Program-made: the position numbers and the translations under genes | Part shown: in pieces, positions 8,829 through 35,095 of the stretch | How the letters are laid out: each line of letters begins with the position of its first letter | Numbering within the stretch: position 1 is the stretch's first letter | Notes under the pieces: generated by a model | The model's input: the letters and a program-made list of their open reading frames with translations, nothing else | What the model was told of the DNA's origin: nothing | Databases searched by the model: none | From: Gemmatimonadota bacterium | GTDB lineage: Bacteria; Latescibacterota; UBA2968; UBA8231 | Direction of reading: 5' to 3' | Assembly: GCA_028875345.1 (NCBI GenBank) | Contig: JAPPEG010000101.1 | Location: 79 to 64,078, forward strand | Length of the DNA stretch: 64,000 bases

Positions 8829-11800
8829 TTACGACGACTTCTTGGGCCGTTGTATCCCATACTTGCGCATCCGATAGCGCAGCGTCTGTGCACTCATGCC
8901 CAACAAGCGAGCAGCACCCCTTTCGCCAGAAACTACCCAATTCGTCCGCTGCAGCGCCTCGACAATTCGCTGCTTCTCATCCTCGTCCTCATCCTCCTGT
9001 TCAACCGGCGACTCAGATGCGGGCCGCGACTCCGCCGCTCCCGCCGACAGCACATCTATCACCTTGATGCGCTTTCCCTCACACACAATCACCGCCCGCT
9101 GCATCCGATGCGCCAACTCCCGCACATTCCCCGGCCAAGCGTGCGCCTGCAAATATTCCATAACCTCATCACTCAACGTCGGCTCTGGACGCTTAAACCG
9201 CTGGGCATACTGACGCACAAAATGCGCCGCCAACACCGGAATGTCCTCCCGCCGCTCCCGTAGCGGCGGCACCACCAGCGGAAACACGGTCAAACGGTAG
9301 TACAGATCCGCTCGGAACGTCCCTTCCCGAACCGCCCGTTGCAAATCGTGGTTGGTCGCCGCAATGATCCGCACATCCACCAAGATCGACGCCTTACCCC
9401 CGACGCGCGTCAGGCGATCTTCCTCTAGGACATTCAGCAACACCCGTTGGGCTTCCAACGGCAAGTCGCCGATCTCATCGAGGAACAGCGTGCCCCCATG
9501 CGCCCGTTCAAAAAAGCCTATTCGCTGCTCAATCGCGTTCGTAAAGGCCCCCTCCTCGTGGCCGAACAGTTCGCTTTCGACAAGCCCAAGGGGCAGTGCG
9601 CCGCAATTGACGGCGATGAAGGCTTGCTCGCGGCGCATGCTCATGGTGTGGATGGTTCGGGCGAGCAAGCCCTTGCCCACGCCGGTCTCACCCAACACCA
9701 ACACCCCCGTGTTCGTCGCGGCCACCTGCTCCACCCTTTTCAGGAGTTGGGCCATGACCGGATTTTGGCTGAGTATATGCGGAGTCCGTCGCTTGTCTGG
9801 GTCATCGGCGACCACCCGCACCTCCAAGCTAGCCACCTCCGACTCCAACCCATCCTGATCTTGAGTCTTCACCTCAAAGCGATATTCACCGGCCGGCACG
9901 CCTCGGTACGACACCTTATTGTCGAGCGAAGGCGCACTCCACTCGGCTGCCGGACCATAGCCGACCAGCCGATAACGGTAGCGCATCGGCGCTACCGCAA
10001 TTCCGAAACGGATGCCCTGGAAATGAATCACTATCTCATCCGTGCCCTCTATATAGGACGCGGCTTGGGACGACTCCACAAGGCGCCCCTCCACAACCGG
10101 ACGGATCACGATACCTAGCGGTCCATTGCGAGGCTGGTACGCGACCAACCCCACCTTCGTCCCAAACCACAGCCGACCTTGGCTGTCGCACAGAATCGCT
10201 TCAATCGTGTTCATTGGTGCTGATTTTCCCAGACGGATGGGGTGAAAGGTCCGGCCATCGTAATTCAAGACGCCCCCGCCGTTGGTCCCAATCCACAGCC
10301 TCCCCTGCCGGTCAACTCCCAACGCCAGAATCCCATTGGCCGAAAGCCCACCTTCCTCCACTGTAAACTGACGCACCTGCTTGGAGTGGAAGTCAAAAGC
10401 AAAAAGGCCCTGCGCCGTCCCCACCCAAAGCGTGCCCTCATGCTCGTACAAGACGTTCACATAAGAAACCGCTTCTAACCCGGCTATATCCAATGCCCGG
10501 AAAAGGCCAGCCTTATAAGAATACAACGCCGGCCTTTTTCCATGCGTACCGATCCAGAACACGCCTTCTTCATCCTGCAGCACGGCGCGGCAAGGGTAAG
10601 AAAACAACTCCTTGAATGCGGTGAAGCGATCTTCTTTAATCCATCCGAAGCGCCCTTCGGACGTACAGACGCTCATGCGCCCTATCCGGTCTATGAACAG
10701 CCCCGCGATTTCTTCGTGGCGGCCCTCGGCCACCTCGATCACTTGGGTTTCTTGGCCCGTTCCCTTGAAGACCTGTCCGTCGGGACCACCACTCCAGAGT
10801 TGCCCTTGTTGATCGACCACCAGCGCCGAGACCGCCCGACCCGTTGCCACCGGGCGAATCCGGGCGTCCTCCAAGCAGGCCAAACCGCCTGCCGTGCCAA
10901 TCCAGATCCGGCCCTCGCGGTCTTCTGCCAAACACCGAACCTCCCGGTCGGGCAACCCATCGGCTTCCGCGTAGCGCTGGACGCGGACTGGATCGCAAAA
11001 AACCAGCCCACCACCCCATAGTCCTATCCAGATGTTCCCCTCGCGATCCTCATAGGTCAGGCGCGTGTCCGCAAAGGGGAACCACGGCAAGCCGACCGAA
11101 AACGAACGCCAGTCCTGCCCATCGTACACCAGCACGCCCTTGCGAGCCACCCACAGCCAGCCCCGCTCGTCCAAGCGCACATCCCGCATTCCGTGCCGCA
11201 CTACCTCCCCGTCTTCAAGCTCGCTCCCCACATCAATTAAGTCGAACTGCTGTTGCTGTGGATCGTAGCGGCCGATCACAGCTTCGCTGCCTATGTAATG
11301 GAAGGCAATCCACAGATAGCCAGCGGCGTCGCCAGCGAACTTCCAAGTCCAATGCCCTTTGCCGGATCCCACGCGGAAGTCCATGCTCATGCGCCGACCA
11401 TCCAAGCTAATAACGCCCCACTTCAACGTCGCCAGCCACGTCGTCCCCACCGCGTCGGTGGCCATATCGTACACCTGCCCGATAGGCCGATCCCCAATCG
11501 CCGTCAAGAACTCGACGACCCGCCCCTTGGAAAACCAGCCAACCCCGTTGCCGGTCAGAATCCGCATCGTGCCGTCCGACTGCTTCTGCAAGCCCAAGAT
11601 GTCGTTGCAGGGCAGGCCGTCCTCAATGGTATATACCTGAAAACTCCGTCCGTCGTAGGCGGCTAGCCCGCCGCCGAGCGTCCCAAAGAGCAACCGCCCA
11701 TCCTCGTCCTCGGCGATGGCCATCACCGTCAGGTGGGGAATCCCGTCCACTCGGCCAAAGGTATCAAAACGAGTCCCGTCGAATCGACTGATCCCACCAT

Positions 11801-26468: not shown

Positions 26469-27482
26469 ATGGAAATGACAAAAAACCAGCGCAAAATAAA
26501 CTGGTATCGGTGTCCCCTGCCGCGCGAGACGCTCGCTGCGCTCAACCAGCGCAGCGACTTTTGGGGGTTACTGCAAACGCTGGGGCATTTGGGTCTGCTG
26601 GCGGCGACGGGCGCAGGGGCTTGGTACGCGGCGGAGCACTTGGCCCTGCCGTGGCTGCTGCTGATCCTCTTTTTCCACGGCACGTTCTACGCCTTTTTGC
26701 TCAACGGCTTCCACGAATTGTGTCACTCCACAGTCTTCAAGAGCAAGTTCCTCAACTACTTCTTCCTGCGCGTGTTCAGCTTTCTCGGCGGGTATAACCA
26801 CATCCACTTCTGGACCAGTCACGCCGAGCACCACAAGTACACTCTACACCCGCCCGACGATCTCGAAGTGGTCCTGCCGGCCCGATTGCGATTCGTGGAT
26901 TTTCTCAAGAGTGCCATTGTAAATCCGTGGGGCTTGTACGCCCGCTACAAGGCGACTTGGCGGCGGGCACGCGGGAAATTAGAGGGCGAATGGGAGCTGG
27001 CGATCTTCCCCGAGTCGGACCCAGACAAGCGGCGACGGCTCATCCGCTGGGATCGCTTCTTGCTGGTGGGGCACGCCCTAATCGTAGTAGTATCCTTGTA
27101 CTTCGGCCTGTGGATGGTGCCAGTGCTCGTTACGCTCGCGCCTTTTTACGGCGGCTGGTTGCTGTTTCTGTGCAACAACACCCAGCACATCGGCTTGCAG
27201 GACGACGTGCCGGACTTCCGGCTCTGCACCCGCACGGTCATCTTGAATCCGTTCTTCCGCTTCCTCTACTGGCACATGAACTACCACATCGAACACCACA
27301 TGTACGCCGGCGTGCCGTGCTACCGGCTCGGCAAGCTGCACGCGGCCATCAAAAGCGACCTCCCGCACTGTCCGCAGGGATTGTATGCAGCGTGGACGGA
27401 GATCGCCGCCATCCTCGAACGACAAAAGGCCGAGCCAGACTACGAATACGTGCCGGAATTGCCCACGCCCGTCGCGGCTTGA
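26469..27482 (+). CDS. Fatty acid desaturase family protein
   Basis: His boxes HELCH, HAEHH, HIEHH. Confidence 0.9.
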   Translation: MEMTKNQRKINWYRCPLPRETLAALNQRSDFWGLLQTLGHLGLLAATGAGAWYAAEHLALPWLLLILFFHGTFYAFLLNGFHELCHSTVFKSKFLNYFFLRVFSFLGGYNHIHFWTSHAEHHKYTLHPPDDLEVVLPARLRFVDFLKSAIVNPWGLYARYKATWRRARGKLEGEWELAIFPESDPDKRRRLIRWDRFLLVGHALIVVVSLYFGLWMVPVLVTLAPFYGGWLLFLCNNTQHIGLQDDVPDFRLCTRTVILNPFFRFLYWHMNYHIEHHMYAGVPCYRLGKLHAAIKSDLPHCPQGLYAAWTEIAAILERQKAEPDYEYVPELPTPVAA

Positions 27483-28166
27483 TCACCACTGCTGCCCCAG
27501 CGGCGTCAGCACCAGTTCATCGACATTGACCCCGCGCGGCTGCGCCAGCACAAAGCACACAGCGTCGGCAACCTCATCGCGGCTCAAGCGACAACGCCGG
27601 CCGCCTTCATCCAACGACACCGGATTGGGGCTAGCCACTGAGCCTAAGGTGATTAAGCCGACGTGGACTCCCTGCTCCGCTGCCTCCCAGCGCAAACTCT
27701 CGCACAGCCCACGCACCGCAGACTCAACCGCCGCGTAGAGCACCGGCGGCCGCGCGCGGATCAACCCCTGCAAGCCGTTGATATGCAGCATCCGTCCGCC
27801 GCTTTGCATTAGCATCGGCAGGGCGGCGCGCGTAATCTGCAACGCGCCGCTTACATCCGTATCGACAAAGGCGCGCAGGTCCTCGTAGCTGACCTCGGCA
27901 AGCGGCCCCTCCACCCAAGTGCCGGCCGCATTGACCAGCGCGTCGAGACTCCCAAACGCCTCCACCGACTCCCGCACCGCAGCTTCGCAATCCGCAACAA
28001 TCCCCACATCGCCCGGCACCGCTACCGCGCCGTCCAACTCAACGGCGAGAGCCTGCACCCTCTCCACACGCCGCGCCATCAGCGCAACTCGGTGCCCAGC
28101 CGCAGCTAGCCGTCGAGCGATGGTCTCACCAATGCCAGAACTGGCACCTGTAATAAGTGCATTCAC
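27483..28166 (-). CDS. SDR family oxidoreductase (atypical catalytic YxxxE)
   Basis: TGASSGIG, NAAG; YAAVE in place of YxxxK. Confidence 0.85.
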   Translation of the reverse strand: MNALITGASSGIGETIARRLAAAGHRVALMARRVERVQALAVELDGAVAVPGDVGIVADCEAAVRESVEAFGSLDALVNAAGTWVEGPLAEVSYEDLRAFVDTDVSGALQITRAALPMLMQSGGRMLHINGLQGLIRARPPVLYAAVESAVRGLCESLRWEAAEQGVHVGLITLGSVASPNPVSLDEGGRRCRLSRDEVADAVCFVLAQPRGVNVDELVLTPLGQQW

Positions 28167-28190
28167 TGCGAGGTATCTCCTGATAATCTG

Positions 28191-28484
28191 TCAACCATTC
28201 AGATAAATATATATGGTCTCCGTCGCCTGACGAGACTCGACGTGCCGCTTCAAATCGGCCCATCGCTCGAAGCCATATTCGCGGGCAATGACCAGTTGGG
28301 CGTTTCTCAAGGAGAACTTGGTTTGAAAAATCTCGTCGTCCGTCCGCTCGGACAAATGCGACAAGGTTTGCCTGAGCCGCTGCGCGCTGGCGGGATCAGC
28401 GGATCGGTGGCCCTTCAGCAGGCTTTTGGCTTGCTTCTTGAGTTGCTCTAGGTTGGGATTGGGCGGAAGCGCAGCCGGGGACAT
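28191..28484 (-). CDS. Stand-alone small helical domain protein (97 aa) of the 'LEQLKKQAK...AQLVIAREYGF.W' family, usually an N-terminal module of ankyrin-repeat and other proteins
   Basis: GAAAGGAG SD and ATG 28484; LPPNPNLEQLKKQAKSLL...LRNAQLVIAREYGFERWADLKRHVE. Confidence 0.8.
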   Translation of the reverse strand: MSPAALPPNPNLEQLKKQAKSLLKGHRSADPASAQRLRQTLSHLSERTDDEIFQTKFSLRNAQLVIAREYGFERWADLKRHVESRQATETIYIYLNG

Positions 28485-28510
28485 ACACACTCCTTTCGCA
28501 GTGCCTGACG

Positions 28511-29521
28511 CTACTCTTCTATACTCCGGGGAATCGGCAAGTTCGCGAGCAACTGGGTAATTTTCCAATCCCCTGACCTGCGACTCAATCCCCAAAATAC
28601 ATATCGCTTCATACTGTGGATCGCCGAGCCTTTTTCGTGGGAGACAGAGACCGTCTCCTCGGTCAAGGCCAAGGCTGTCAACCCGTTTTCACCTAGATTG
28701 GTGTAAATCACGCGCCGATCGATGGTATAGTTCGCATACGTCAATCGCTTTTTCAGCCAAGCCTCAAATTCCTCGGCGTCGCTGAATGCAATGCGCCACT
28801 TAGTTCGGTCCATCAGGTGATAGGCGTCGTAGGCGACGAAGTCCTCATCAACGGCCGCCACTATGGCCCCGATGTCTTTGTTTTGCCAAGCCTCGGCTTC
28901 TCGCTCCAATATGGCCGCGATGTACGTCGCGCTCGCCGCGGAAGCAGGTGCTATAGCCGTGGTATCTGCGATATTTTGGAAGACGCTGGCGGCGAGCCAT
29001 TGGTCATCGTCTTTGGTAAAGGTCCACAGGCGATACATGTCGAGGGACTGGCTAGTACCGCTTTGCCTATCGATGACCAAACCAGAGTCCTGAGTAGCGA
29101 CGATGGCTTTGTCGTTGCGGGCGAGAATAAACAACACCGTGCGGTTGAGATCGTAGCGCCGATGCTCGAAATCAGCGGCTAAGGCTCGAGCTAAGACCGC
29201 TCGGTTTTCGCGGAGCACGGTCCACCCTCGTGGATCCGCCGAATGATGCCCTTCATAGACGACGGCATGATCGGCATAGGCTTGGATGGCTACGTCTGCA
29301 TTTCCCCGACGGTGGCCGGATTTTTCAGTGCTCAAAACCTGGCGGATCAAGACCGTCTCGGGCGTTTCCGCAGCCCAGGCGATACTCCCTAAAAAATTCA
29401 GTGCGACGAGGTAGGCGATGAATCGGTTTTTTCTTACTGCCGCTCCGTTCTCTGCGGAGGCGGAGATGAAACGGGTGAGGATAGGGCTTGCAGCAGGATG
29501 AATCCGAGAATATCGCTGCAT
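28511..29521 (-). CDS. Exported protein with two NTF2-like (SnoaL/DUF4440) domains
   Basis: Signal-like RKNRFIAYLVALNFLGSIAWAA; two repeats ending WTFTKDDDQW and WGLSRRSGDWKI. Confidence 0.75.
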   Translation of the reverse strand: MQRYSRIHPAASPILTRFISASAENGAAVRKNRFIAYLVALNFLGSIAWAAETPETVLIRQVLSTEKSGHRRGNADVAIQAYADHAVVYEGHHSADPRGWTVLRENRAVLARALAADFEHRRYDLNRTVLFILARNDKAIVATQDSGLVIDRQSGTSQSLDMYRLWTFTKDDDQWLAASVFQNIADTTAIAPASAASATYIAAILEREAEAWQNKDIGAIVAAVDEDFVAYDAYHLMDRTKWRIAFSDAEEFEAWLKKRLTYANYTIDRRVIYTNLGENGLTALALTEETVSVSHEKGSAIHSMKRYVFWGLSRRSGDWKITQLLANLPIPRSIEE

Positions 29522-29647
29522 GTGATCTCCCTTCGTTGCGCCTGATGTCCGCGTAGATCAGGCAGAAAAGAGTACACAGCAGGAGATATTCCGAGAGAGG
29601 TGGGCTTGGCCCTTTTGGCGGACTAGGGGGCTCCCTTAAAGCACCTA
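29522..29647 (-). ncRNA. Candidate structured cis-regulatory leader RNA with pseudoknot and SD-sequestering stem
   Basis: Minus strand: AGGUG/CACCU closing helix; hairpins AGGG/CCCU and GGGC/GCCC; junction GUCCGC complementary to GCGGAC in the loop of hairpin GCCUGAU/AUCAGGC; CUCUUUUC pairs with the SD GAAGGGAG. Confidence 0.65.
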
Positions 29648-29653
29648 TTCCGC

Positions 29654-29682
29654 AATCAAAAAGAGCAGTACAACCATGTCAA
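29654..29682 (-). promoter_or_regulatory. sigma70-type promoter for the leader RNA
   Basis: Perfect TTGACA (29682-29677), 17-bp spacer, weak -10 (TTGATT); predicts a start near 29648, the 5' end of the structure. Confidence 0.5.
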
Positions 29683-29707
29683 GAATACTTTTCGGTGCGA
29701 CAGAAAC

Positions 29708-30697
29708 TTAGATAAATCTAGACGTGATTTGCCCCACGGGGGCCTCGCCCCGAGCGTAGCGGTCGAGATTGTCCGCAGCCAGACGCGCTCGCTTGCGCGA
29801 GGTGCCGTCGGTCGAACCAGCGGTGTGGGGCATGACAAACACATTGGGCAATTGGAAAACAGGGGCCGTAGCGTCGGGCGGCTCCTGAGCGAACACATCG
29901 AGCCCGGCCCCACTCAAGCGACCGTCCACGAGCGCTTGGTAAAGAGCGTCCTCATCGACGAGCGCCCCTCGCGCCACGTTGATCAAGCACGCGGTTTCCT
30001 TCATCAGGCCGATGCGCCGCGCGTCAATGGTATGCCGGGTCTCCGGCGTCAGGTGCAGGTGCAGCGACAGGTAGTCGCTCTCGGCCACCACGCGGTCGAC
30101 GTCCTCGGGTCCGCCGAGAAATTCGGGCTGGATCTCGGCGAGGATTTCCTCTTCAATGGGGCGGATGTCGATGGCCAAGATCCGCAGGCCAAAGGGCTTG
30201 GCTCGGCGCGCCAAATCTTGGGCGCTCGCACCAAAACCGATCAGGCCGAGCGTCAGGCCCTCCAACTCGACACCCGTAGGCACGTACATCTTGCGAGCGT
30301 CGAAATTCCGCCGCGCCTCTCCGTAGCGGTGGGCGTGCATGAGGATGAACATCATCGCACTCTGAGCCAACGCCACGCTGCTGAGCTGCCCAGGGCAATG
30401 GGCTAGCAACAATCCAGTACTGAGAATTCCCTCGACATCGACGTGGTCGAGGCCGGTAGTCTGGACCTGGAGGAATTTGACGCCAGCGTCGGTTGCAGCG
30501 GCCAGCAGGTCCGGACTGATATTGCCCCCTAAATCGACGATAGCTTCAATGCCCGCCATTTGCGGCGCGGCTGGCTGGGTGCGGTCGAAGACGCGGAGAT
30601 TGTGTCGGGCACTTACGGCCTCAATCACGTCGGTCGTCCAAGGCGAGGCAATTGCGGCGACCGGGTGGGGCAGAAAGAGAACCTCAAGCCGTCGCAT
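29708..30697 (-). CDS. D-isomer-specific 2-hydroxyacid dehydrogenase
   Basis: GLIGFGAS, INVARG, GLDVFAQEP, PHTAG. Confidence 0.92.
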   Translation of the reverse strand: MRRLEVLFLPHPVAAIASPWTTDVIEAVSARHNLRVFDRTQPAAPQMAGIEAIVDLGGNISPDLLAAATDAGVKFLQVQTTGLDHVDVEGILSTGLLLAHCPGQLSSVALAQSAMMFILMHAHRYGEARRNFDARKMYVPTGVELEGLTLGLIGFGASAQDLARRAKPFGLRILAIDIRPIEEEILAEIQPEFLGGPEDVDRVVAESDYLSLHLHLTPETRHTIDARRIGLMKETACLINVARGALVDEDALYQALVDGRLSGAGLDVFAQEPPDATAPVFQLPNVFVMPHTAGSTDGTSRKRARLAADNLDRYARGEAPVGQITSRFI

Positions 30698-30700
30698 GCG

Positions 30701-31477
30701 CTAGTACCCCAAGTCGGCGCGGACACGCGCCATCTGTTCGCAGCCAGCCGCGAGAAACGGCTCATCGCCGCCAGCGAGAATCAGCGAGAAGCCGTCGTCC
30801 ATGGCGCGTTGGATTGACTGCGGGTCGCTAGCCGGGCGATAGACCCCAATACCGGCGGGCTTGCCAGCGCGGCGAGCGGCCGCGGCGAGCTCGGCCTGGG
30901 CGTCTTGGAAAACAGACCCCTCGTAGTCAAAGGGCACCCCCAGCGAGATCGACAGATCGACCGGGCCGATGACGAACGTATCGACGCCCTCGACGGCGAG
31001 GATTTCGTCGATATTGGCGACCGCCTCGGCCGTTTCAATCAGCGCGATGAATATCACCAAGTCGTTTATCTCCGCGAAGTACTCGTCAGTGCGCAACCCG
31101 TACTGGGCCGCCCGATGCGGTCCAAAACCGCGAATGCCAACCGGAGGATAGCGGCAGGCGCGCGCGCCTTCTGCGGCTTGGTCAGCGGTGTTGACGAACG
31201 GGGCGAGGATGCCCAGTGCGCCCATGTCGAGGTAGAGGCGGATCTGCTCCTCGTCGATGCGCGGCAGGCGGACGATGGGCATGGCTGGGGTATTGCCGAT
31301 GGCCTGCAATTGCGCCTGGATGCCAGTGGGGGTCTGCGGCGCGTGTTCCGAGTCGATGACGAGAAAGTCAAAGCCCGAGTGGCCGCAGAGTTCGGCAATG
31401 GCCGGAGAGCCAAAGCGGAGCTGGGTACCAAAAGCGGGCCTTCCCGCGGCGAATTGGTCTTTGATGCGGTTGTGCAT
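30701..31477 (-). CDS. HpcH/HpaI aldolase family protein
   Basis: IDSEHAP, LDMGA, RYPPVGIRG, IGPVDLS; likely start ATG 31477. Confidence 0.92.
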   Translation of the reverse strand: MHNRIKDQFAAGRPAFGTQLRFGSPAIAELCGHSGFDFLVIDSEHAPQTPTGIQAQLQAIGNTPAMPIVRLPRIDEEQIRLYLDMGALGILAPFVNTADQAAEGARACRYPPVGIRGFGPHRAAQYGLRTDEYFAEINDLVIFIALIETAEAVANIDEILAVEGVDTFVIGPVDLSISLGVPFDYEGSVFQDAQAELAAAARRAGKPAGIGVYRPASDPQSIQRAMDDGFSLILAGGDEPFLAAGCEQMARVRADLGY

Positions 31478-31485
31478 GTAGTCTC

Positions 31486-33381
31486 CTAACTCCACGGCAG
31501 GGCGTACGAGGGCTTATTGACGAAGCGCTCCATCCCCAAGTCGAGCCGAATCGCCGATCCAGGCTGAAGACAGACGGTGAAGTGTCGGTCCTGTACGGCG
31601 ACCGTTTTGTCCTCCAGTTGCCCCTGAACGTTCTGCTGATATTGGGTGGCGTGTGAGTGTCCCGCACCGGCTTCCTCAGCCGAGAGGGGCCGTCGCTGCT
31701 GGTAGGCAACGCGAGTGAAGCTGTGCTCGCCAAAAGCGCCGGCCTGCACCAAGACCTCGCGCTCTTCCGTCGGGTGCAGGTTGACCAAGTGCAGAACGGC
31801 CCGCTCGTCTGCCAGCGATTCCACCAAGGCGGCCACGTCTAGCGGCAAGCCCGGTCGGCGGCGTTGCGGGTCGAAGTAGCGCAGGCGGGCCATGAGCAGG
31901 CCGCCATTGTACATGAAGAGCGGGGCTCCCATCGTCAGTTGCACCAAGCCCTCGACAGTGATGGGATTGCGCACTTGCAGATACCAGTCGCCGTAGGTAG
32001 CAGGATCTTGCTGGTCGTCGCGCATGAAGGCCAAGCGCTGATATACTTGCGCGTGGTTGTGCCGCAGGATATCCACCGGGTACTCCAGGTATTCGCCTTC
32101 AAGATACGCGGTCCAAGCCGCTTCGTGGCCGCCGCCGTGCTTGGAAGAGTGCGAGCTTACCTGCCGCCAATTGTCGCTGTCGTGGTTGCGCTGCTGTTGG
32201 AGCCGCGCCATGTCCTCTTGCTGCATGCTCATGCACCAGAGGTGGGTCGTGGGATGGGCCTGCATGGGACTGTACCCGTCCCAGCCTTTGTCGTGGTAGA
32301 AGTGCGGCGCGTATAGCGTCTGTCCCCGCATTTCCCCCTGCTGCATCAGCACGTCGATTTGCGAGCGCGGAAAGTCCATGTAGCGCAAGTCGCCGGAGAG
32401 CAACGCCGCGTTTTCCGCGGCCGCAATGCAGGCGTCGCTCAGGTGGTGCCAGCCGTGCGGCCACGTCCAGCCGTAGTACCCGCCGTACCACTTGCCGTCG
32501 ATGTATTCGCCGATCTGCCCCGACAGGCCGACGTTGTCGGGTAGGATGCCGTTGTTTTGCCGGGTGCGCTCGATCCACGCGTTGGTGTATTCCTCGACCC
32601 AAGCTCGGTACTTGTCGTCGCCGCTGCACAGATAGGCGTTGGTCACCATGCTGGTAGCGGCGAGGTTGCAGGCCACATCGCCGCGGCTCATGCGCTCGAC
32701 GAGGGTTTGGCCCATCTTCTCTTCCATGCCTGGCTTTTGCAAATCCTCGACTGTCTCAATGCCGGGAATGTCGTGAAAGGGCAAGGGCCAAGGTTTCCAC
32801 TGGGCGTAGCGATAGACCGTGTAGTGCTTTTCGAAGTTGCGGTGTGCTGGTCCCATACTGCCGTTGTGGGCGCAGCGGATGAGCTTTTTCTCCGCGTCGT
32901 AATTGGGGGCCTCGGGGTCTTCGTTGAGATAAAAGCCCGCATAGCGCTTGGCGCGCTCGACGTTCTTTTTAGTTGGATCAGCGAGACATAGCAAATAGAA
33001 AAACAAGTATCCCTCGCCTTGGTGCATCCAGTCGTACCCTTGCTCGTATTCTTTGACGACCATGGGGTGGCCGTGGCCGGTGTCGTAGCGGGTGAACTGT
33101 CGGGTGATGCCCTCCCAAGTGCGGTGGGAATATTCGAGCACGTGCTCGCCGCCACCCATCAAGTAAAAAAGCGGCCAGTTGTGGAAGCTCTCGTACGCAT
33201 CGTCGAGGCCGTCGATGCTGCTAAAGTCCTCTGTGGGCGGCCACAGCACCGAGCCGTCCGGGCGCACGTAGCGCTCCATGAGCGGATGGACGGACGCGTC
33301 CATCAGGTCGATTAGGCTGCGTTCGAGAACGGCCCATTGGGGCGGCTCGACAAACGGTATGTTCCCTTCAACTCTTACCAC
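31486..33381 (-). CDS. Conserved hypothetical protein (possible (alpha/alpha)-barrel lyase or glycosidase-like)
   Basis: GTG 33381 with GAGGAG SD; DDAYESFHNW, YDWMHQGEG, PDNVG...WYGGYYGWTWPHG, RRRPGLP motifs; coding-like composition. Confidence 0.75.
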   Translation of the reverse strand: MVRVEGNIPFVEPPQWAVLERSLIDLMDASVHPLMERYVRPDGSVLWPPTEDFSSIDGLDDAYESFHNWPLFYLMGGGEHVLEYSHRTWEGITRQFTRYDTGHGHPMVVKEYEQGYDWMHQGEGYLFFYLLCLADPTKKNVERAKRYAGFYLNEDPEAPNYDAEKKLIRCAHNGSMGPAHRNFEKHYTVYRYAQWKPWPLPFHDIPGIETVEDLQKPGMEEKMGQTLVERMSRGDVACNLAATSMVTNAYLCSGDDKYRAWVEEYTNAWIERTRQNNGILPDNVGLSGQIGEYIDGKWYGGYYGWTWPHGWHHLSDACIAAAENAALLSGDLRYMDFPRSQIDVLMQQGEMRGQTLYAPHFYHDKGWDGYSPMQAHPTTHLWCMSMQQEDMARLQQQRNHDSDNWRQVSSHSSKHGGGHEAAWTAYLEGEYLEYPVDILRHNHAQVYQRLAFMRDDQQDPATYGDWYLQVRNPITVEGLVQLTMGAPLFMYNGGLLMARLRYFDPQRRRPGLPLDVAALVESLADERAVLHLVNLHPTEEREVLVQAGAFGEHSFTRVAYQQRRPLSAEEAGAGHSHATQYQQNVQGQLEDKTVAVQDRHFTVCLQPGSAIRLDLGMERFVNKPSYALPWS

Positions 33382-33391
33382 TTTAGTCTCC

Positions 33392-35095
33392 TCATGTGTT
33401 GCGGACGAGGGCCTCCACCTGCGCGCGGAAGACCTCGATTTGCGCCGCGTATTCGTGGCGCAATTGGATGATGAATTGCCCAAAGAGCCGCTCCTGCTTT
33501 TGGCGGCGCACCAATGCTCGAGCGCGGCGCTCGGCCTGTGCAAAAGGCCTCGGTGCGGCGTTGATCGTCGAATCGAGCAAGCGGAAAATGGCGTAGTACG
33601 GGCCACTGATCGGTTCGGAGCTTAGCACCTCAGCGGTCGCGACCTCCAAGGCAATCGGACCGATGAATGCGCCGATTTTTTGCCCTTGTGCCGCCTCAAA
33701 GAGCGGGACGAACTGTTGCTTCTCCCAAGGATGCAGGTGAAACTCGCCCTGATTGGCTTTGCCGCGCCGGCGCAGGGTGTGCTCGGCGGCCAGCGCGCCC
33801 AAGTCGCCGCCGCGTTCCACTTCCTCGCGCAGCGCCAGCGCCTCCTCCTCGGTGCGAACTAAAATTTCCTGCACGCCGATCGATTCGAGGGGACGGAAAA
33901 GGTTGGAGTGGCGGTCGTAGAACTCACGGGCTTCTTCGCGGCTGGCAAAGACGCCATCGACCACGTCCCGGCGCATGGCCACCAGCAGGTTCGATAGCTG
34001 CCGCTCTTGGAACCAAGCGACCACTGCTTCTTCGCGGTCAACGCCCGCCGTGTACGCGCCGGCCAACAGCAGCGCGCGCGGCTCGACGATGTCTCGGACG
34101 AACCAGTCGAACTGCTCGGGCGCGTCCTCTGGAAAGCCAACGCCTAGCTCGCGAGCAAAATCGAGCAGATCGCCAATGGTAAATGTGCCGCTCTCGTGTT
34201 CATAGATCGGCTGCTCGCGCTCCTCCGCAGAAAACGCCTTGGCACCCTGCCCGATGCGGCCGCGCACGCGCTCCAAGGCTTGGTCGTGAACCACAAAGTC
34301 GAGTTCCTGCCGCAAGCGGGCCGACAGCGCCTGTACGGCCGGCGGCAGCTTCTCCTTGAGCAGCTCGGCCTCGATGACCGACTGCACGACCGAGAGCTTG
34401 ACCGGCACTTCGGCTGTCACCTCGTACACGCCGAACTGGTCGTTAAAGAGCACCGGCTCCGAGAACTGGCCCGGTGCCAGCGGAAAGACCTTCTCCTGCA
34501 AGATGCGTGGGTACAGCTCGTCCTTGATCAGGTAGCGGCCCCCCTCTAGCTGGGTCGCGTCGAGCAAGTTGTGGCTGGCCCATACGTCGAAATCGTCACC
34601 GCCCTCCAAGGCCGCCTTGATTGCTCGCGCCTCTCCTACTGTGGCAACTACGATGCGCCGCACCTGCACGGCGCGGTCGCGGCCCGTCTCTCGCTGATGG
34701 GCCAGCATCTCCTCTTGTGTGTGGACGATCTTGTCGTACACCTCCAACTGCAAAAAGCGCCGCAAGACGCGGTCGTTATGCAGCTTGTCCATCTTGCGGC
34801 GGAAGTCGGCGCGCTGGTCGAGGCCCCGCTTCTTGGCCTCCAGGACCATGAGCTCCTTGTCGATTATGGTCTGCAAGTAGTCGAAATAGGCGTCAGCACC
34901 CGTCTTTTTACTCCGCAGATCGGGGTGTAGCCTTTCTTCAAACTCCAGCAATTGAGGGGCGTCGATTTCCACCTCGCCGACTCGGGCCACCACCAAGTCC
35001 TCGGTGGGGGTGCCGCAGCTCCAGCAAACGAGGAGCCACAGCCAATATACCGCGTGCTTCGCTCTACTCACTAAGCCCTGCTTGTACTGTGACAA
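33392..35095 (-). CDS. Parvulin-type peptidyl-prolyl isomerase/chaperone lipoprotein with two PpiC domains (start may be GTG 35071)
   Basis: Lipobox-like VCWSC, VVARVG, VRRIVV / VQEILV, FSEPV, GPI; PrsA/SurA-like layout. Confidence 0.82.
   Translation of the reverse strand: MSQYKQGLVSRAKHAVYWLWLLVCWSCGTPTEDLVVARVGEVEIDAPQLLEFEERLHPDLRSKKTGADAYFDYLQTIIDKELMVLEAKKRGLDQRADFRRKMDKLHNDRVLRRFLQLEVYDKIVHTQEEMLAHQRETGRDRAVQVRRIVVATVGEARAIKAALEGGDDFDVWASHNLLDATQLEGGRYLIKDELYPRILQEKVFPLAPGQFSEPVLFNDQFGVYEVTAEVPVKLSVVQSVIEAELLKEKLPPAVQALSARLRQELDFVVHDQALERVRGRIGQGAKAFSAEEREQPIYEHESGTFTIGDLLDFARELGVGFPEDAPEQFDWFVRDIVEPRALLLAGAYTAGVDREEAVVAWFQERQLSNLLVAMRRDVVDGVFASREEAREFYDRHSNLFRPLESIGVQEILVRTEEEALALREEVERGGDLGALAAEHTLRRRGKANQGEFHLHPWEKQQFVPLFEAAQGQKIGAFIGPIALEVATAEVLSSEPISGPYYAIFRLLDSTINAAPRPFAQAERRARALVRRQKQERLFGQFIIQLRHEYAAQIEVFRAQVEALVRNT

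Follow-up and report, generated by a model that had tools for sequence, protein, structure and literature searches.

A probable leader stump between an NTF2-like gene and an N-domain gene, and the leader RNA family to which it points

Introduction

The ZTP (pfl motif) riboswitch is built of two conserved sub-domains that are separated by a variable linker and tied together by a pseudoknot, and it exerts control via the downstream sub-domain. The SAM-II and preQ1 classes are compact pseudoknotted translational riboswitches which hide the ribosome binding site. In the autogenous leaders of ribosomal-protein operons, a conserved structured RNA stands before the gene of one particular protein. Cis-regulatory RNAs in tandem or inside operons, along with decayed copies of them, are a general pattern.

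Here we describe a leader RNA from a 64,000-nt stretch of DNA (contig JAPPEG010000101.1, positions 79 to 64,078; hereafter, the window) which resembles each of these systems in part. Like the ZTP riboswitch, the leader has two sub-domains with a variable linker, joined by a pseudoknot. Unlike it, the leader’s 3' sub-domain is itself the SD-sequestering hairpin, what its downstream genes have in common is a protein domain and not a pathway, and there is no sequence or model similarity between the two. As in the SAM-II and preQ1 classes, a pseudoknotted fold lies at the SD, and all of the examples seen appear to act there, none via a terminator; however, the leader is larger and two-part, and the regulated genes have no known common metabolic theme. 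As with the ribosomal-protein leaders, the RNA precedes the gene for one domain (here called the N-domain), which by analogy is the pattern to be expected if the product were to bind its leader, but the N-domain is fused to many C-terminal domains and there are several copies per genome. Lastly, a relative of the window’s genome, G018, carries two complete leaders where the window has one leader and a probable relic. This is similar to tandem cis-regulatory RNAs, except that the relic continues to provide the second gene with its ribosome binding site and the genes behind the two leaders were not the same.

Results

Organization of the locus

The locus lies on the minus strand and comprises the following features:

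29708..30697, minus strand: D-2-hydroxyacid dehydrogenase (HADH) gene, the upstream flank of the block (Pfam 2-Hacid_dh_C, E 4e-49)
29708..29717, minus strand: left direct repeat ATTTATCTAA, at the end and stop of the HADH gene (from comparison of occupied and empty alleles)
29654..29682, minus strand: promoter-like site of the leader, sigma-70-like, TTGACA at 29682-29677, a 17-nt spacer and TTGATT at 29659-29654 (read from the sequence)
29519-29648, minus strand: full leader, about 125 nt, predicted to be pseudoknotted and SD-sequestering
28511..29521, minus strand: NTF2/SnoaL-like gene, 336 aa, the first cistron behind the leader (ORF list)
28513-28511, minus strand: stop codon TAG of the NTF2-like gene
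28485..28510, minus strand: probable stump of a second leader, with TCAGGC at 28508-28503, the SD GGAG at 28493-28490 and the spacer (aligned to G018)
28191..28484, minus strand: stand-alone N-domain gene, 97 aa with five predicted helices, ATG at 28484-28482 (ORF)
28198..28208, minus strand: right direct repeat ATTTATCTGAA, inside the 3' end of the small gene (occupied against empty alleles)
27483..28166, minus strand: short-chain dehydrogenase (SDR) gene, the downstream flank of the block (Pfam adh_short, E 5e-36)

The HADH gene and the NTF2-like gene are separated by 186 nt, and at the other end the last codons of the N-domain gene overlap the right direct repeat. The NTF2-like protein is made up of two SnoaL/DUF4440-like halves and a hydrophobic N-terminal segment. 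Its Pfam scores all fall under the curated cut-offs, given here in parentheses: SnoaL_2 24.8 bits (27), SnoaL_3 17.7 (22), and DUF4440 17.6 (25.2). Orthologs were found in nine relatives at 87-93% identity, and G044 was added at the DNA and protein level. A consensus-based promoter scan did not flag the leader’s promoter-like site because the second hexamer lacks an A at position 2. TTGAC(A/G/T) is also found upstream of the paralogous leaders, at an equal distance from the RNA.

Structure of the leader RNA

When the window’s intergenic region was folded, a pyrimidine-rich strand was predicted to pair with the SD of the 336-aa gene. The predicted elements of the leader are as follows:

29598..29642, minus strand: 5' domain, about 45 nt, two hairpins and an internal pseudoknot (covariance model, 155.5 bits)
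29642-29630, minus strand: P1 hairpin (custom parse, compensatory variants)
29636-29634 with 29600-29598, minus strand: pseudoknot 1, P1 loop AGG with CCU (custom parse, compensatory variants)
29623-29618, minus strand: GUCCGC of the 5' domain, one strand of pseudoknot 2
29612-29602, minus strand: P2 hairpin, 99.7% paired, three of four pairs changed on both sides
29573..29597, minus strand: variable linker between the leader domains, conserved neither in sequence nor in length (81-leader alignment)
29527..29572, minus strand: 3' hairpin, formed in the single-sequence fold
29572-29565 with 29534-29527, minus strand: anti-SD with SD, 89.6% paired
29563-29559 with 29544-29540, minus strand: inner stem of the 3' hairpin, GCCUG with CAGGC, 94.8% paired
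29552-29547 with GUCCGC, minus strand: pseudoknot 2, 3' hairpin loop GCGGAC, six bases, 99.2% paired

Pairs were counted in a MAFFT alignment of 81 distinct leaders for four helices, namely P2, anti-SD/SD, the inner stem, and GUCCGC/GCGGAC. Over the 81 leaders, 95.0% of cells are paired, compared to 36-54% when the partners are slid by one to three columns. Changes on both sides of a pair were found in 96 cells, against 34.3 +/- 4.4 in shuffles, and 0/500 shuffles reached that number; the leaders are related sequences, such that the shuffle control overstates significance and these figures should not be read as probabilities. One pair of pseudoknot 2 occurs as UA (72), AU (5), and CG (2), and the whole helix is found as GUCCGC/GCGGAC, GACCGC/GUGGUC, GCCCGC/GCGGGC, AUCCGC/GCGGAU, and GUUCAC/GUGAAC, the last of these in a Chloroflexota variant (L150) which lies outside the 81-leader alignment.

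Because the model-based and MAFFT alignments put the 5' strand of P1 in inconsistent columns, P1 and pseudoknot 1 were parsed with a script of our own. This parse is descriptive, with no formal count, and it sets the stem boundary wrongly in some rows. According to it, the P1 hairpin covaries, and pseudoknot 1 is found as AGG/CCU, AGA/UCU (two lineages), AAG/CUU, GAG/CUC, GGG/CCC (several lineages), and CGG/CCG, with AGG/CCG as the single exception. Covariation thus supports four helices and two pseudoknots in the predicted structure of a conserved domain, and all of the supported pairings are mutually compatible. The putative expression platform overlaps the SD, as the anti-SD/SD helix is present and covaries.

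We would also like to note that the purine-rich P1 loop of the window (AAGGGAG) is complementary to the anti-SD strand, which makes an open form with the strand held by the 5' domain conceivable.

Distribution of the leader and its association with the N-domain

We built a covariance model from eight leader sequences. In the window’s own genome, a BLAST search with the leader retrieved only itself, and the paralogous copies were found with the model: there are four matches, namely the window leader and one immediately in front of each of the three other N-domain genes. Within the genus, 44 matches were inspected, and in 35 of these an N-domain ORF follows at once (two of the ORFs are disrupted). 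The rest consist of two with an N-domain 280-310 nt further on, two of the NTF2 type (the window and the first leader of G018), two lacking an N-domain gene, two pieces with the 5' domain only, and one spurious match. In the sample of the window’s phylum, the leader is present in 54/151 genomes (E up to 1e-4), and a single genome has at most 11 copies.

The association was also followed from the side of the protein. From a species-level genome collection, 80 N-domain loci were gathered, 72 of which are outside of the window’s own genus or locus type. The covariance model placed a full-length leader ending at the start codon in 67/72, and of the other five, four have variant leaders seen by eye and one (L172) has the 3' hairpin only. 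Per their record titles, the loci come from about ten phyla: Latescibacterota, Poribacteria, Chloroflexota groups, Acidobacteriota groups, Verrucomicrobiota, Planctomycetota groups, Gemmatimonadota, Armatimonadota/Abditibacteriaceae, Myxococcales, and Aliifodinibius. When five other genomes were searched whole, 11/11 RNA matches preceded N-domain ORFs, and 11/14 N-domain loci had a match. The RNA is therefore found in front of genes for one domain. Weak model matches L063-L067 (E 0.04-0.5) lie inside conserved coding DNA and were discarded as spurious, as was the L062 match.

A search of the window against Rfam 15 at E up to 10 gave no family match to the leader at the gathering score, and 12 diverse leader loci gave none at E up to 1. 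The RF02169 match on the strand and at the place of the leader is at chance level (11.3 bits against a gathering score of 45, E 7.5). Full-text literature searches retrieved no description of this leader RNA, and term look-ups in PMC11109978 and PMC8632094 gave zero occurrences of the phylum names and of “ankyrin”. The leader is a widespread putative regulatory RNA that, by these searches, had apparently not been described before.

The N-domain is a helical domain of about 85 aa at the start of the products of leader-bearing genes, whatever comes after it. The parts C-terminal of it were assigned to Ank, FliG_C, PcfJ, or an AAA lid, or to nothing known, and this N-terminal domain is all that the downstream genes share. 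It belongs to no Pfam or NCBIfam family. An AlphaFold2 model of the 97-aa protein yields five helices with a pLDDT of 86.8. Foldseek retrieved no match to the domain in the PDB at E up to 0.001, and the best Z among 48,161 chains compared by VIA-align was 3.9, at which no family can be named or excluded. A search of the ESM Atlas and of 5.8 billion proteins retrieved only entries named “hypothetical protein”. The charge of the domain is mixed, as the pI is at least 9.1 in 6/10 N-domains and 4.7-7.9 in the others.

A probable stump of a second leader

The original prediction was that the 26 nt between the NTF2-like stop and the small-domain ATG are a variant of the leader’s 3' arm, able to pair with the same 5' strand. 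Both sequences read as quoted there, and the spacer matches the arm (29546-29519) at 18/28 bases. Among 4,881 start-like sites of the window’s own genome (an ATG with an SD-like motif and at least 60 open codons), four others also reach 18/28, and none score higher, so that by identity alone the assignment as a stump is borderline. The covariance model, run with filters off over 27000-31000, finds the leader and not the stump, since 26 nt are too short for it.

The comparison with relatives settles the matter. In all relatives having the ortholog and the same gene order, the spacer is 26-29 nt long, except in G018, where it is 219 nt. The extra 193 nt of G018 together with the shared 3' end make up a complete second leader (127.4 bits, E 2e-30). 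Its 5' domain, anti-SD strand, and loop are those of the first leader, whereas it differs in the linker, has a promoter-like site of its own, and carries an extension helix matched to its own spacer. The window spacer equals the 3' end of this second leader with two or three changes, and it is therefore a stump, whose homology with the leader’s 3' arm is established by way of G018. Both the linker and the upstream region of the second leader differ from those of leader 1, so it is an old copy and no recent conversion. The breakpoints fit one deletion that starts right behind the stop codon and ends right before the hairpin arm’s TTAGGC. In G019, G009, and G020, the upstream gene ends at a TAG inside the hairpin-arm remnant, which is its stop codon. 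The NTF2-like protein tree groups G018 weakly with G002 (81/82), which has the deletion, and the base of the tree is unresolved. Read literally, this grouping would call for two deletions or for recombination between lineages.

The hairpin-arm bases of the stump drift among relatives: the exact TCAGGC is limited to the window and G024, with CTAGGC in three relatives and TTAGGC in four relatives and in the full copy of G018. Thus, the expectation that TCAGGC would be conserved before the small gene did not hold for the exact motif, while CGAAAGGAGTGTGTATG is near-invariant in the alignment with relatives.

This pattern bears on whether the stump is part of a long-range switch, in which the upstream anti-SD strand would pair alternately with its own SD or with that of the small gene about 1 kb away and so silence two cistrons. 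By energy this is possible, as the leader’s 5' strand (29582-29557) is predicted to pair with its own arm at -23.7 kcal/mol and with the distal copy at a nearly equal -23.1 kcal/mol, and 10 genomes show no variation in the stump’s SD and spacer. As had been foreseen, the distal pairing also extends further when G-U pairs are allowed, but what this adds, UGUGUA, pairs by G-U wobbles throughout. Only the SD and spacer are fixed, and the hairpin-arm bases of the stump vary among close relatives, such that comparison lends the switch no support. The complementarity would be inherited from the lost second leader with no need for selection; the small gene in G018 has an anti-SD strand of its own; and a second locus of similar order, L090 (below), has no such stump. 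In addition, the proximal arm would be made 10 nt after the anti-SD strand, whereas more than 1,000 nt, including a translated ORF, would have to be transcribed before the distal arm appears. We consider such a switch unlikely.

The idea of an ancestral unit of leader and domain gene is supported, as leaders stand directly before N-domain genes elsewhere in the window’s genome and its genus, and across about ten phyla. The reading in which the NTF2-like gene was inserted into a single leader and split it, and the upstream 3' arm was later created or repaired, with the two-leader state of G018 being secondary, has slightly poorer prospects than the switch. The gene is indeed bracketed by a leader and a leader end, and the tree does not set G018 clearly outside of the others. 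However, the upstream leader is complete, its 3' arm, SD, and spacing being canonical for the family; no relative has the NTF2-like gene without the full upstream leader; and the promoter-like site, linker, and extension helix of the second leader in G018 cannot regrow from a 26-nt stump. Finally, a chance resemblance between two ribosome binding sites of one genome through a common GGAG, spacing, and ATG would allow for the four equally similar sites and for the model’s missing the stump, but is very improbable given that G018 has, at this very position, a full leader with whose 3' end the stump can be aligned base for base.

Presence and absence of the block

Between the HADH and SDR genes, the promoter, leader, NTF2-like gene, stump (or second leader), and small gene form a block of about 1.5 kb. 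Of 25 HADH loci, 10 have the block next to HADH, 8 have an empty site, and 7 fit neither description. An allele lacking the NTF2-like gene, with the leader joined directly to the small gene, had been anticipated; the eight genomes, all of the genus, do have an empty site, but it is the whole block that is absent and not the NTF2-like gene alone, as only 21-23 nt lie between HADH and SDR and the leader, the NTF2-like gene, and the small gene are all missing. In G018, 7 kb of other genes separate the block from HADH, and the SDR gene is truncated.

A direct repeat of 10/11 nt flanks the block (ATTTATCTAA and ATTTATCTGAA), and empty alleles read ...ATTTATCTGAAC... once. The right junction differs from a clean duplication by 14 versus 2 nt. 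With regard to a mobile cassette, the site is polymorphic and direct repeats flank the block, but there is no mobility gene of its own: no transposase, integrase, or recombinase was found in the block, which holds only the NTF2-like and N-domain genes. HADH identity to the window is 89-97% and is similar for occupied and empty alleles, so the difference is recent or was spread by recombination. The block may have been inserted, or it may have been lost in the empty alleles. A search of 1.2-1.5 kb on the flanks of the other 81 N-domain loci found no homologs of NTF2, HADH, or SDR.

A second gene behind a leader, and RNA-library contigs

A similar order was found in G016 (locus L090), where the leader is followed by a 96-aa FliG_C ORF (E 4.5e-16), after which comes an N-domain gene whose SD is plain and which has no stump. 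Taken together with the window, a gene between the leader and the domain gene has thus arisen at least twice.

Contigs from RNA libraries cover the leader and the NTF2-like gene and bridge the junction between the NTF2-like and small genes, and contigs of two RNA libraries join across 28183-29709, as in the empty allele. Being contigs, these data speak to presence and bridging only, and not to transcript ends or strand. Two 100%-identical contigs from one study end at 29635 and 29633, not far from where the 5' end would be expected (about 29647), which is at most a weak hint of where the leader begins.

Discussion

Taken whole, the explanation that best fits the locus is that the spacer is the stump of a second leader, that the leader belongs to a family tied to the N-domain, and that the block has the history set out below; we hold this to be likely. 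The ancestral unit would have been a leader directly before an N-domain gene. A state with two full leaders, such as that of G018, would have followed, in the order leader, NTF2-like gene, second leader, N-domain gene. In the window’s lineage, 193 nt of the second leader would then have been lost, comprising the promoter, 5' domain, linker, anti-SD strand, and loop. As a result, the NTF2-like gene would now be a leader-gated first cistron, and the N-domain gene would be co-transcribed with it, keeping a bare SD and having no anti-SD strand of its own. With all parts folded, the RNA would be compact, its 5' domain docked on the closing hairpin’s loop, and the SD would be closed, together with the start codon in some copies. 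The comparisons above show that the stump is homologous to the leader, that the fold covaries, that the RNA is coupled to the domain, and that empty and occupied alleles exist; the direction of events, the co-transcription, and the closure of translation by the fold are what we infer from them.

The strict tie between the RNA and the domain fits either a domain that binds its own leader or an RNA and a domain that answer to one ligand. A bolder proposal, that the leader is a phylum-spanning RNA class whose N-domain recognizes its own leader directly and closes the SD, is possible but, in our estimation, doubtful. If the domain does bind the leader, the two would constitute an autoregulatory module, portable and open to fusion with any effector, and the 97-aa protein would be a trans-acting regulator of all leader-bearing genes in the cell, including the NTF2-like gene.

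The stump itself would be ordinary genome history, but it exposes an RNA family and the pairing of RNA and domain. The alleles of the window, G018, and L090 may form a natural series of a foreign gene coming under a leader, from leader-domain, to leader-cargo-leader-domain, to leader-cargo-stump-domain. The RNA family is new to Rfam 15, and its strict pairing with a domain that has no family is a lead to the function of both.

Further leader and N-domain loci

The order of leader, cargo gene and N-domain gene seen in the window was found a second time in a relative's genome (L090, on contig C258 of G016), where a 96-aa ORF with a FliG_C domain is placed after a full leader and before the N-domain gene:

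1001-1123, minus strand: leader
709-999: FliG_C-domain ORF
from about 695: N-domain gene

At two other loci (L091 and L094), a single protein carries both the N-domain and FliG_C as a fusion.

Leader copies reach up to 11 per genome in some members of the window's phylum. One Poribacteria contig holds three N-domain genes inside 10 kb (L110, L123 and L126, at about 54-64 kb), each with one leader. The leader nearest to that of the window from outside the genus scores 69.6 bits and comes from a Dehalococcoidia record (L107). In this record and another from Dehalococcoidia (L113), the N-domain stands at the head of proteins of about 400 aa, the C-terminal sequence of which looks like Clp N-terminal repeats, as read from the translation and not as a Pfam result.

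Partial and disrupted copies

A 69-nt copy consisting of the leader 5' domain alone was found in two genomes (L060, G041:C80; L098, G011:C1:4051785-4051853). The sequence 3' of it is unrelated to the leader and is conserved in both genomes, and the copy looks like a leader truncated at the opposite end. N-domain ORFs behind leaders are frameshifted or truncated at L055, L088, L058 and L092, with the pieces of the N-domain in L055 being spread over three frames. These disrupted ORFs, mostly from the fragmented genome G016, are decaying copies or assembly errors.

An additional helix at the linker end

Each leader has an additional helix which pairs the end of the linker with the spacer or start codon. 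The window regions concerned are:

29573-29582: leader 1
28482-28490: 3' end of the stump of the second leader, with the small gene's start codon

In leader 1, GUG pairs with CAC, and in the full second leader of the relative G018 (L010), CAUAC pairs with GUAUG. Because each leader has such a helix, wobble pairing of the window's UGUGUA with the stump is possible.

Surroundings of the leader block

Upstream of a further leader copy, in G019:C336, lies a gene (L041, 1-1464) that is a paralog of a 706-aa gene in the window:

31486-33606: 706-aa gene, two genes upstream of the window's leader

Since these upstream genes are paralogous, the wider surroundings of the two leaders may be paralogous as well.

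In G018, HADH is separated from the leader block:

L204 (G018:C1:1609000-1621000), about 3700-10700: 7-kb separating stretch

This stretch, which starts at the same TTATCTAA junction, carries genes for a glycosyltransferase of family 2, an LPG_synthase_TM protein and an amine oxidase, along with unknowns, and the SDR gene at this locus is down to two fragments. The TTATCTAA junction looks like a hot spot of rearrangement.
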